Shown piece by piece: positions 2,110 to 59,505 of a stretch of 64,000 nt of DNA; position 1 is the first letter of the stretch, and each line of letters starts with the position of its first letter. A program made the translations under genes and the position numbers. The notes under the pieces were generated by a model. It did not search any database, was not told the DNA's origin, and saw only the letters and a list, made by a program, of their open reading frames with translations. Source of the stretch: Eledone cirrhosa (Eukaryota); contig OZ024747.1 in the NCBI GenBank assembly GCA_964016885.1, positions 24,986,001-25,050,000 on the forward strand. Direction: 5' to 3'.

Positions 2110-3719
2110 CATGGAAAGTTATATTTAAAATTGTTGGGTTACAACTAGTAAATATTTATAACTGATATAAAAGCACTCGACAAATATTTGGAGTATATTT
2201 ACAATATTAAATAAATGGAAACTATATTTATAAAACCATATTTATTTCATTATATATATTTCGGGGATATCATATTAACAATATGCTATGCCTTCCTCAG
2301 ACAAAATACAATATAAATAGTTTTATAGATAAATAGATTCGACATACCGTTATAACACCGACTTCTATTTGAAGAGGTTTAAGCTGGCAGTGAAAAAATT
2401 TTACACAGAGAGAAAGAAAGAGAGAAAAAAGAAAGAAAGACAGAAAACGAAGAAAAGGAAGAAAAAGAAGAAATGCATGGAACAAAATAGAGAGATGGAG
2501 AGATAGATAAAGCGAAGAACTTCATGTAAAGAAACAGAAAGAGATATATATATAGAGAGAGAGAGGAAATAGAGATAGATACATATATATATATAGAAAA
2601 TTAGGTAGTGGGAGGTCATTTTGAGTAAATGTATCAATGATACATTTATTTATTTATTTATTTATTTAGCTCAAGTATTAATGTAAGGGAGATATATATA
2701 GAGAGAAAAAAATATAGAGAGAGAAAAAAATAGCGAGAGAAAAAAAATTTAAAAATAGCCAGATATATTCGAGGCGTAAAAACCCTATGTTTTAATGTAT
2801 TAGTATTTATAAAACTTACACTATATTGTAAATATCAGTATTCCTGAATGAGACAAGTATCCATAGTGTGTGAAAATTAATTATCTTATGTTTAGTTTTT
2901 TAAAAAAATTCATATGTTTATGTGACAGCTACAAACATCCATGCGAATCCACATGATTCACTCTGCAAACTCTAAATTCACGGAAAACATTCTCAATGTG
3001 GTATAAAAATTTGAGCATAAATATATGTGTATTATTATTCCTGTCTTTACTCTACAAGATTATCTATCAAGCAGAAATAGAGAGCAGATTTCAATATACT
3101 AATAAAAATATATATCAGAAACAAAACTAAAAAAAATAAAAAGATAACAATAATAATAATAAGTAATAATAAAATAGAAAACTAAAAAAATATTACGAAA
3201 GAATATTACATATTAAAAATATTACATATTAAAAATATTACGTATTAAAAAATATTACGTATTAAAAATTCACATATTAAAGATATTAAAAATAAAAATA
3301 AAAAATAAAAAATATTATAAAATACTACAATAATAAAAAATAAAAATAAAAATAAACCACAAAGATCAACCCTTCAAAGTTAATTGACAATATATTGCCA
3401 AGTTCATTACAAGACAAAGCCAAAAATTATCTATCAAATCACATCTAGCAAAGATCATTTCAAAAAGTTTATGATGTCCAATTTGGTCTACATATGTTCT
3501 TATATTTAATATAGAAGTTTATCTAGTGTAAGGTTTATTCAAAATATTTGGAGCATCAGCTTTTAGGGTAGCTTAATTTTTCATGAGGAATGTTTAAATA
3601 AAAATAAAATAAAAATAAAAATAAACAATAAAAAAAGAATAAAAAGAAGGAATCAAAAATTTAGGAATCAAAAATTTATCGGCTAGTTTCCCATATAAAT
3701 ATAAATCAAACTAAATATA

Positions 3720-4772
3720 CTACATTTTAAATTTAAATTTATATTTAAACGTTGAGTTTAATCTATGTTTGCAACAACTGAATAAATTTGTCCGTAGATT
3801 AAGGGAATTTTTAGATTTTAGTATAAAGAATATCTCCTCTGCGCAGAGGTCACATGTCTCAGAGGATGAATTAAAAGGAATCCCTCTTGAGACTATATTC
3901 CAAGCCGTCGAATATCTAACGTTATCTAGCTTAAGTTGCCAGAGTACGCCTGATAGTGCTGTTGAAGATTTTTTACTTGGATCTGTGAAAGAATTCTTGT
4001 GGTTATTATAGCAAAGTTTAAATTCCGTCGATGTGGAACCGACGTAGTTAAAAGAATTAGAGTCAGTATTAACATTACAATTGTATACTATATTTTTAAC
4101 TAAGCAGTTGTTATTTAACGGACATTTAGATCTATCTCTACAGTTACATTTGTTAACTTGTATATTATTTATGCTATTATCACTAGGTTTTAAGTTCCTA
4201 TTATTTATTCTATTAATATTTTGTGCTAAATTTTTGGTGGATGAGTAGGTTAATTTAATTGTATGCCTATTGAAAATTGAGTGATACCTATGTGTTCTAG
4301 GGAAGCGATTATCAAGAGCTTTGAAAAATAATTTAGCGATGTGGGTTTTAATGTTTAGTGAGAAAGGGGGGGGGGGAACCAAATTATGTTCCTAGTTCTA
4401 TTTCTTTTTTGGCCTTTGGAATTATTGTAATGCTTTCTATTATAGTTGTTAATGTTGTTGCCGTAATTAAAAAAGTTGTTACTTTGTTTAGTTTGTCTAT
4501 CATTATCTATGTACACAATCTTATCAGCATATCCTGCCCTAGCTAATGCTTCATTATAGTATTGGGCCTTTTCGTCGAAAATCTTTCTATTCGACGAGAT
4601 CCTAGAGATACGTTTTTGAACTGAGTTTACTATAGTGTTTTTGACAGATCTGGGGTGGTTAGAGTTAAAGTTGACATAGTTTAAGTTTTCATTCAACTTG
4701 TGAAAAGGATAGTGGAGACATGTGTTGAGATTTAATGTTATATCTAGGAAATTGACTATTCTATGGTTGTTC
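3720..4772 (-). pseudogene. Inverted duplicate of the PLE-A RT thumb/GIY-YIG region (frameshift in poly-C run)
   Basis: ORFs 4355-4957 and 3720-4382 reproduce the C-terminal peptide of ORF 4722-6422. Confidence 0.9.
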
Positions 4773-6422
4773 ATTTTTGAAAATGACCTGCCAGTTAGAT
4801 TGATCGCACCTTCAAAATCGGACCTGGGCAAATTAAGCAAAAACATTCTTGACAGGGTGATACAGCAAATTAAGAACTTGGATTGTGTATCTAACCTGAG
4901 CTTGTGGAAGGGAACTGGAGAGGTTGTTGAGTGGTTTAGGCAAATTAAATATAACAATAATAATAGGTTTATTCAACTTGATATAGCTAACTATTATTCT
5001 TCTATTACCCCTAGTCTACTAAATAAGGCACTAAATTACGCATTCAAACATACTGACCTAACTAGCAAAGAAATGCATATTATATTATCGGCTAGGAAAA
5101 CTTTGATAGAATTTAATGACAAATTATGGACCAGAGCAGATAGAGATAGCAATTTTGACATAACTATGGGATCTTCCGACTCAGCTCAGGTAACTGACCT
5201 TGTGGGCTTATTTTTAATCAATTCGCTACATAGGAAAATACCTGGTACTACCGGAGGTTTATATAGGGATGACATGCTTTTACTTATTAATAATAATAAC
5301 CCTGAACTAAATAGAAAATGTAAACAAATTACAAAATTTTTTAATTACTTTAACCTTAAAATAGAAATTGAGAACAACCATAGAATAGTCAATTTCCTAG
5401 ATATAACATTAAATCTCAACACATGTCTCCACTATCCTTTTCACAAGTTGAATGAAAACTTAAACTATGTCAACCTTAACTCTAACCACCCCAGATCTGT
5501 CAAAAACACTATAGTAAACTCAGTTCAAAAACGTATCTCTAGGATCTCGTCGAATAGAAAGATTTTCGACGAAAAAGCCCAATACTATAATGAAGCATTA
5601 GCTAGGGCAGGATATGCTGATAAGATTGTGTACATAGATAATGATAGACAAACTAAACAAAGTAACAACTTTTTTAATTACGGCAACAACATTAACAACT
5701 ATAATAGAAAGCATTACAATAATTCCAAAGGCCAAAAAAGAAATAGAACTAGGAACATAATTTGGTTCCCCCCCCCTTTCTCACTAAACATTAAAACCCA
5801 CATCGCTAAATTATTTTTCAAAGCTCTTGATAATCGCTTCCCTAGAACACATAGGTATCACTCAATTTTCAATAGGCATACAATTAAATTAACCTACTCA
5901 TCCACCAAAAATTTAGCACAAAATATTAATAGAATAAATAATAGGAACTTAAAACCTAGTGATAATAGCATAAATAATATACAAGTTAACAAATGTAACT
6001 GTAGAGATAGATCTAAATGTCCGTTAAATAACAACTGCTTAGTTAAAAATATAGTATACAATTGTAATGTTAATACTGACTCTAATTCTTTTAACTACGT
6101 CGGTTCCACATCGACGGAATTTAAACTTTGCTATAATAACCACAAGAATTCTTTCACAGATCCAAGTAAAAAATCTTCAACAGCACTATCAGGCGTACTC
6201 TGGCAACTTAAGCTAGATAACGTTAGATATTCGACGGCTTGGAATATAGTCTCAAGAGGGATTCCTTTTAATTCATCCTCTGAGACATGTGACCTCTGCG
6301 CAGAGGAGATATTCTTTATACTAAAATCTAAAAATTCCCTTAATCTACGGACAAATTTATTCAGTTGTTGCAAACATAGATTAAACTCAACGTTTAAATA
6401 TAAATTTAAATTTAAAATGTAG
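4773..6422 (+). CDS. PLE reverse transcriptase plus C-terminal GIY-YIG endonuclease (5'-truncated, uninterrupted)
   Basis: LDIANYYSSI, FDITMGSSDSAQVTDLVG, LYRDDML, VNFLDI, then CNC..CPL..CL, IVY, YVGST, CDLC and LN.R motifs. Confidence 0.92.
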   Translation: MFENDLPVRLIAPSKSDLGKLSKNILDRVIQQIKNLDCVSNLSLWKGTGEVVEWFRQIKYNNNNRFIQLDIANYYSSITPSLLNKALNYAFKHTDLTSKEMHIILSARKTLIEFNDKLWTRADRDSNFDITMGSSDSAQVTDLVGLFLINSLHRKIPGTTGGLYRDDMLLLINNNNPELNRKCKQITKFFNYFNLKIEIENNHRIVNFLDITLNLNTCLHYPFHKLNENLNYVNLNSNHPRSVKNTIVNSVQKRISRISSNRKIFDEKAQYYNEALARAGYADKIVYIDNDRQTKQSNNFFNYGNNINNYNRKHYNNSKGQKRNRTRNIIWFPPPFSLNIKTHIAKLFFKALDNRFPRTHRYHSIFNRHTIKLTYSSTKNLAQNINRINNRNLKPSDNSINNIQVNKCNCRDRSKCPLNNNCLVKNIVYNCNVNTDSNSFNYVGSTSTEFKLCYNNHKNSFTDPSKKSSTALSGVLWQLKLDNVRYSTAWNIVSRGIPFNSSSETCDLCAEEIFFILKSKNSLNLRTNLFSCCKHRLNSTFKYKFKFKM

Positions 6423-58821: not shown

Positions 58822-59273
58822 GTCACTGGACCGAGACCTTTGGCGGTACTCAGTAACAGAGAAGAGCCGCCTTGCCTAAATACATAGTAAAACCTACTAC
58901 AGTCAGTAGGCATCTCTAACAAAATACACCCCCGTCCCACCACCCAAACCCCCACCCCATCCACACCACCCCGTTCTATGTAAAGTTATGTTGGTGCCGC
59001 GCCATCCAGGCCGAAACAAATGAGATCGTGTAGGTGTCACGACAAAAAAACACACAGTCCACGCTGTAATGTGGCCGTGTAGGCAACACGGTAAAAACCT
59101 CCCAGACCCACACTGTAAATGTGGTTGGTGTTAGGAAGGGCATCCAACTGTAGAAAACCTGCCAGACAGTCCTATGCGAGCAAGACAATCACTCTTGCCT
59201 CAAGTGAGACTACCCCCGTCCAAACCCATGCAAGCGTAGAACACGGACGTTAAACGTTGATGATGATGATGAT
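58822..59273 (+). mobile_element. RTE LINE 3' fragment (single copy of the UTR unit)
   Basis: Matches 19963-20520; (GAT)n tail. Confidence 0.9.
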
Positions 59274-59317
59274 ATATATATATATGTATATATGTGTGTG
59301 TATATATATATATATAT

Positions 59318-59505
59318 GTTTATCCCAGGTTCAATCAGGGGTAACCACAGTAAGTAAGGTACTTAATACATAGCAGAGTATAAATATTTAATATAGAAAT
59401 GGCTTCTACAGGACTAGACCCGTTTTATTCGGGAGAAATCGTCAGGAAGCCGTGATGATTTCTCCCAAATGAAACAGTTCTAGTCCTGTAGAAGCCATTT
59501 CTATA
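59318..59505. mobile_element. Mini palindromic insertion of the 31877-36781 family, two head-to-head hammerhead remnants
   Basis: Tail 59318-59392, minus-strand motif 59401-59451, plus-strand motif 59452-59496. Smaller remnant at 58150-58215. Confidence 0.75.

Follow-up and report, generated by a model that had tools for sequence, protein, structure and literature searches.

Penelope-like elements (PLEs) occur as head-to-head palindromes, and here we show that, in a 3.0-Gb AT-rich animal assembly, such palindromes follow a near-absolute rule of one tail per insertion. The analysis concerns a window of 64,000 nt (G000:C7:24986001-25050000; "the window" denotes this whole stretch) and a genome-wide sample of the five families labeled A to E in their window order. 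In this sample, 146 of 148 two-armed insertions had one tail, two had none, and none had two. In each family, the ends cluster in two narrow intervals, as expected from the fixed, family-specific tail-less end that a first-pass annotation of the window had proposed. The one-tail rule is real and general, and it is stricter than the published wording; the twin-hairpin geometry described below is the most useful addition. We propose that the palindromes were probably formed by twin priming of reverse transcription at two fixed internal sites, which are marked by hairpins in the Hydra-type families, and likely on one RNA.

Self-comparison of the window after microsatellite masking revealed nested inverted repeats bounded by (TA)n runs. 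The features of endonuclease-positive (EN+) PLEs are present, namely partial tandems forming pseudo-long terminal repeats (pLTRs), an inverted truncated copy, and a tail. Ten same-family two-armed insertions were found, and all ten carry a single tail, of 40 to 169 nt. The family that the annotation called PLE-D is family I here, nested in D, and its unnamed family ending at 36781 is our family D. The corresponding features, including an open reading frame (ORF) with reverse transcriptase (RT) motifs, are as follows.

2113..7944: family A insertion with Hydra-type motifs; inverted short tailed arm on the left, ORF-bearing long arm with its tail-less end at 7944.
2113..2201, minus strand: tail of this A insertion, 89 nt, with the tail-less site at 2202 and the tail end at 2113; predicted bulged hairpin at 2175-2194.
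4713..6422, plus strand: A ORF, 5'-truncated; RT with YRDD, CxCX5C linker, GIY-YIG-like region without CCHH, CxxC..CxH; no Pfam match.
10467..10904: short family A palindrome; arms near-equal, tail 10818-10904 at the right.
20998..26021: family B insertion; left short arm tail-less, ORF-bearing arm with tail 25885-26021 (137 nt) and predicted hairpin 25892-25972.
25681..25815, plus strand: B hammerhead core motifs, CTGAAGA ... GAAAC-GATC-GTT, by motif match only.
26171..30160: family C insertion with Neptune/Nematis-type motifs; RVT_1 and GIY-YIG Pfam matches; 40-nt tail 26171-26210 on the short inverted arm.
31902..36780: family D palindrome; arms equal, 1031 nt each without the nested insertion; 68-nt tail 31902-31969.
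33229..36028: family I insertion nested in D; left short arm tail-less, ORF 33259-34248, tail 35860-36028 (169 nt).
41491..41803: head-to-head join of two families; tailed G arm (minus) and tail-less B arm (plus, 125 nt), junction near 41683, no (TA)n between.
42866..44047: family E insertion 1; left long arm tail-less, 60-nt tail 43988-44047 on the short arm.
44071..44885: family E insertion 2; tail 44071-44129 on the short arm.
47884..48080: family H mini-palindrome, 80-nt tail at the left; absent from the first-pass list.
59318..59501: D', an older D-subfamily mini-palindrome; tail at the left, tail-less end at the secondary site.

The last unambiguous base of the tail-less ends lies at 7944 and 10467 in A, 20998 and 41803 in B, 42866 and 44885 in E, and 36780 and ~59501 in D, 59501 being a secondary site 7 nt upstream. 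The end coordinates cited earlier were all real to within 2-7 nt, those of A (7946 and 10465) taking in the TA overlap with the target, but the B coordinate 41806 marks the tail-less B arm joined to G and not a B palindrome. The two E insertions stand tail to tail, with a short (TA)n between them.

Genomic loci were picked with queries upstream of the tail, plus one tail-biased search that supplied part of the family A sample, and were read inward for at most 10 kb. For B and C, whose stubs are very abundant (6,716 and 8,467 exact-match arms, respectively), loci came from exact patterns at the first 100 places, with places 31 to 100 taken only if a partner match lay within ~12 kb; 10 of the E matches were mostly left out. 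The 148 pairs comprise 136 fully read, 5 traced later, 6 read at both ends only, and 1 added later. Among those fully read, 134 of 136 were one-tailed and 2 tail-less, against 50% one-tailed under independent choice at each end (binomial p ~2e-37), and the two-tailed share is below ~2% at 95% confidence. Palindromes with two tails or none are thus not as common as those with one, in keeping with the rule as first put forward. Scored rows include 3 partial tails, one B tail-less arm ending ~44 nt early, and one D arm ending 12 nt late. We left out B C1:54091416 (its middle is non-family DNA), B C1:30693539 (the mirror continues into unique flank), E C3:26159335 (ends from two insertions), A C1:180320386 (a diverged subfamily with its own tail), A C4:293636308 (two subfamilies), and six two-armed copies whose inverted arm was broken off or whose end was not reached; B C1:42667378 was re-paired once a nested single arm had been seen.

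The rule extends beyond these five families. Indeed, a sixth family, G, gave 15 one-tailed pairs out of 15, and when 1,622 segments flanked by (TA)n runs were scanned without regard to family, 255 inverted repeats emerged, of which 214 were one-sided, 21 symmetric (several being inner pieces of long palindromes split by internal repeats), and 20 neither; 118 of the one-sided repeats are diverged subfamilies or lie beyond the six named families. Joins with too little overlap to score as repeats had complementary ends in 50/50 same-family cases versus 1/4 cross-family cases (p=2e-4), a count that leaves out four same-family rows and one cross-family row with an unclassified end and in which many of the 50 had been pre-selected for a tail. 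For the cross-family join at 41491-41803, a deletion between neighbors is the likelier origin, since four further cross-family joins in the sample break the one-tail rule. Assembly fold-back as the source of the palindromes was ruled out by their differing flanks and asymmetric arms. Of note, the 12-kb mirror at G000:C1:30693200-30705438 (L272, L273), with 99% identity, runs into unique flank and is an inverted duplication or an assembly fold-back.

Where the two kinds of ends lie in the element bears directly on how they were made. Tandem copies of families A to E run through the tail end toward the ORF, which shows that the tail end is internal to the leader and is not the end of the element; the ORF starts 28-48 nt past it in A, C, D, and E, and farther on in B. 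The earlier suggestion that the tailed arm was primed at the true 3' end of the RNA does not survive this read-through and the second hairpin found beyond. At all 10 sites of A to E the element shares 1-7 nt of TA sequence with the target repeat, and at least 2 nt at 9/10 (p ~2e-5 versus local background). This overlap, and a D secondary site that sits at a TATAT run, would suit a tail-less end defined simply as the best TA-pairing stretch near the 3' end, devoid of any structural signal. That explanation is largely refuted by nearby TA runs that are longer but not used, one of 9 nt in A and one of 8 nt in B. It also has to accommodate a D main site that overlaps the target by 1 nt, and it offers no reason for one end of each kind; we hold it to be scarcely credible.

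A structural signal is present in many families. A predicted bulged hairpin, RYTC-NNN...NNN-TN-GARY, occurs near the tail-less end in 24/54 tail clusters, compared with a mean of 1.4 in shuffled sequences, and it starts 6-9 nt past that end in 16 of the 24. Its stems covary by A-T/G-C swaps, and the first bulge base, which is unconstrained, is T in 24/24. In A, B, H, and cluster 6, a second copy starts 6-9 nt past the tail end as well (clear in 4/7 Hydra-type families), whereas the motif is found at 4/355 (A) and 3/610 (B) background anchor positions. Folding energy of the whole tail is not exceptional, no family but A reaching z=-2.3. Since the second hairpin is not copied into the tailed end, the template of that end would be a read-through RNA. 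In B, the second hairpin (L280-L281, leader) has a ~100-nt loop that holds a donor-like word, GTATGT, and a leader intron could shorten this hairpin to the compact form.

The distribution of the tail between arms argues for two separate priming events. Among one-tailed, fully read pairs, the tail is on the long arm in 42 and on the short arm in 45, the arms are equal in 41, and 6 more have no call. By family, the long/short counts are 8/13 (A), 4/10 (B), 11/7 (C), 10/3 (D), and 9/12 (E), with a heterogeneity p=0.07; the tail-bearing arm is thus not a family property. The assignment made earlier (long arm in B and PLE-D, short arm in A, C, and E) was right within the window, but no such family rule holds genome-wide, where B and C run the opposite way; PLE-D is outside the sample. 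Furthermore, 17 of 30 short tailed B arms stop before reaching the tail-less site, and tail-only arms exist. Because the tail is on the shorter arm in 45/87 unequal pairs and because of the tail-only arms, the palindromes require two rounds of RNA-templated synthesis, short of an appeal to deletions, in line with the two priming events proposed at the outset. The claim that simple snap-back does not account for the palindromes also stands: snap-back of a tail-primed cDNA predicts that the longer arm is tailed and cannot yield tail-only arms, and it survives only with frequent later deletion.

In its most complete form, such a scheme has a single priming at the tail end, a cDNA that folds back and is copied as DNA as far as the tail-less site, with termination there by the endonuclease or by microhomology, and later asymmetric central deletions that randomize the relative length of the arms. 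The single tail and the identity of the arms then follow without added assumptions, the 41 equal-armed pairs are accounted for, and Craig et al. ascribed the tail to endonuclease-mediated resolution (PMC8557442). The cost is a deletion for every tail-on-short case, for the tail-only arms, and for 33 tail-less single arms; moreover, zero-loop junctions are poor snap-back primers, the shared hairpin offset suggests that both ends are made alike, and in vitro the RT initiates at the tail-less site (PMC11167929). We regard fold-back as improbable. Still less probable is the model that Arkhipova et al. put forward in 2013 for head-to-head palindromes and intron retention, in which an antisense transcript primes its own copying and an endonuclease resolves the intermediate (PMC3846280); this model predicts neither sense-strand hairpins downstream of both ends, nor TA overlap at both, nor equal use of the arms.

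Do the two arms derive from one RNA? Arms of the same insertion match at 217/228 subfamily-diagnostic sites, a concordance in which the one clearly discordant B pair is a mis-pairing, D offers nothing informative, and E, an old family, gives a noisy result (22 to 7). This agreement is not due to later homogenization, since CpG change remains arm-specific in 9/15 G pairs (scored by eye). Twin priming on two RNAs of one donor, held by an asymmetric protein dimer or, as first suggested, by an RNA dimer, with one RNA per site, would require no strand displacement, fits the flat truncation profile described below, and finds support in the proposal that PLE hammerheads act as dimers (PMC4209133). 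It has nothing obvious to assign one RNA to each site, and the matching of arms in donor variants and in 5' extent, the cross-family joins that break the rule, and the absence of an effect of hammerhead mutants on insertion in vitro (PMC11167929) all count against it; we judge it unlikely, if the least so of the alternatives considered here. Its original version, a dimer held by hammerhead loops, fares poorly also because the predicted hammerheads lie upstream of both ends and because C has no CUGAnGA within 250 nt.

The agreement in 5' extent comes from the short arms of B and C, which pile up at a fixed 5' point ~210 nt (B) and 189 nt (C) from the tail-less site. Arms ending there had no long partner (B, 0/22 versus 28/34; C, 0/18 versus 28/48), although the two arms of a pair are not independent in these counts. 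Short equal-armed palindromes turn at this point in B, C, D, and E (e.g., L173, L175, L313, L316). In three of these families (B, D, and E), the point is a few bases 5' of the CTGAnGA core of the predicted hammerhead, and the arms of short B palindromes begin just 5' of the hammerhead core motifs. The fixed 5' point is probably the RNA start.

Tabulation of the inversion junctions, as had been recommended, gave 79 clean cases: 43 with an overlap of 1-19 nt (1-5 nt in 30 of these), 8 blunt, and 28 with extra bases or unaligned gaps. Zero-loop junctions sit on self-complementary TA or GATC and are compatible with the annealing of two 3' ends.

Of the schemes considered, two RNA-templated primings, each at its own marked site, account for the counts with the fewest assumptions and match what the anole element does in vitro. 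In the twin-priming scheme that we favor, the two cut strands of the (TA)n target would serve as primers on a single element RNA, each at a different site, where the nicked 3' end would pair by a few bases, and each hairpin would seat one of the two RTs in a dimer. Synthesis from the tail end would copy the tail and then continue over the same region, which requires strand displacement; PLE RTs, which are not known to carry RNase H, may be capable of this. The two same-sense cDNAs would then be trimmed and joined 3' end to 3' end via microhomology, generating the head-to-head inversion, and an RNA leader with one site of each kind would give one tail per insertion, on either arm. That both primings use one molecule is inferred. 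A stronger version, which we advance only tentatively, is an obligate, programmed twin priming in which two tandem RT-positioning hairpins in the leader each load one dimer subunit onto one break end, the tail being the spacer between them. If true, this would define a mode of retrotransposition whose two new junctions both arise from synthesis on an RNA template.

Several observations weigh against this scheme or its details. I and cluster 14 have no more than part of the second hairpin and D lacks it, neither copy was found in C and E, though both families obey the one-tail rule, and the motif was defined once the data had been seen. Shared donor variants do not distinguish a single RNA from two transcripts of the same donor. 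Nor do tailed-arm truncations pile up at the tail-less site, as a collision on a single RNA might cause them to do: 47 junctions in 10-nt bins from -30 to +29 gave 7, 8, 7, 9, 7, and 9 (30 computed and 17 scored by eye, one of 48 being excluded). Two genuine tail-less pairs with matched arms occur (C1:9960965 and C2:53944234). Many copies have a single arm (65 of the 77 unpaired ends that were read inward for at least 5 kb, 33 tail-less and 32 tailed), so that the two primings are not always completed or kept. Finally, for Poseidon of Anolis carolinensis in vitro, start sites were alike on both strands and showed no homology to the target, pairing within one product being unmeasured there (PMC11167929).

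A one-sided tail and two internal start sites were known; strict coupling and the twin hairpin were not found in the accessible published text. PMC8557442 states that the tail is often at one end only, puts this down to endonuclease resolution, and gives the formation of inverted ends and tail as open, and PMC3846280 describes the tail as optional on one inverted pLTR and proposes antisense self-priming. Compared with the EN+ PLE insertion unit, with published tails of 30-40 nt (PMC8557442, Fig. 2 legend; PMC3846280), tails here measure 40-169 nt, the rule is counted (0/148 two-tailed) and independent of arm length, and the ends are tied to a repeated hairpin. The closest system is Poseidon, in which two internal RT starts bracket the tail, both strands are cut and extended, a dimer is predicted, and hammerhead mutants do not alter insertion in vitro (PMC11167929); by these data, both of the sites that bracket the tail are RT start sites. 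It shares with our families two RT starts near the pLTR-ORF junction, downstream of the hammerhead, and AT-rich targets, but its starts are placed inside the ORF and lack primer homology, whereas the sites described here are coupled, fall within the leader, and have 1-7 nt in common with the target. Hydra-clade units are given as <3 kb in section 11 of PMC8557442, an account that does not include the twin hairpin, compared with ~3.9 kb for A and 6.6-7.1 kb for B. The literature searched, which did not extend to subscription papers, including reviews from 2005-2006, yielded no tails counted per insertion, no twin priming in PLEs, and no twin hairpin, and nothing on tails was found in the accessible portions of PMC12602865, PMC13282606, and bioRxiv 10.64898/2026.07.22.740005.

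L1 elements offer a further comparison. In L1 twin priming, the second target strand primes internally on the RNA, which produces an inversion joined by microhomology; such inversions make up a minority of L1 insertions, their sites vary, and little or no sequence is duplicated. In the insertions described here, inversion occurs routinely, neither site varies, and the two arms are copied from one and the same region. The near-absolute one-of-each rule, with a hairpin at a fixed offset from each end, makes the question of mechanism experimentally direct and provides annotators with a boundary rule for the abundant B and C stubs.

Family identity rests on protein and RNA motifs. Family C has Pfam RVT_1 and GIY-YIG matches above the cut-off, while A, B, and I have none; the copies read are frameshifted or truncated. 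In A, B, and E, YxDD and a GIY-YIG-like region were recognized by motif in read-through copies. The Hydra-clade DKG->DKT change is found in A, B, and D, with an RW-type RVRWRA in B and RIRWRA in D, I being truncated before this region. A CxCX5C linker, no CCHH, and CxxC and CxH around the catalytic E and N are seen in full in A, B, and I, and in D too, and these four families insert into (TA)n. The linker is of the CX2-5CxxC type in C (CDRPNCGIC) and E (CIDKKCITC), and C also has IYVLTCSGCREQYIG (two cysteines inside GIY-YIG). By these motifs, A, B, D, and I appear to belong with the Hydra clade and C and E to be of Neptune or Nematis type. Hammerhead cores CTGAnGA and GAAA were found in A, B, D, and E by motif match only.

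Other repeats share the window. Family F (8490-9455 and 40350-40960 in the window) forms head-to-tail arrays of a 1.0-kb unit, which has a single fixed 3' end into (TA)n, and no palindromes were seen in 30 loci. A tailed arm of another PLE-like family lies without a partner at 39220-39453. Translations point to fragments of other non-LTR (long terminal repeat) retrotransposons, some nested, with endonuclease and RT frames, at 12625-20520, 30460-31840, 16320-16964, and 44995-46860. On the minus strand, 62903-63973 holds a 356-amino-acid frame with a signal-like start and a cysteine-rich domain, which we presume to resemble hedgehog-interacting protein-like genes. Tandem arrays with units of ~64 and ~82 nt occupy 61698-62348 and 54335-55210, respectively.

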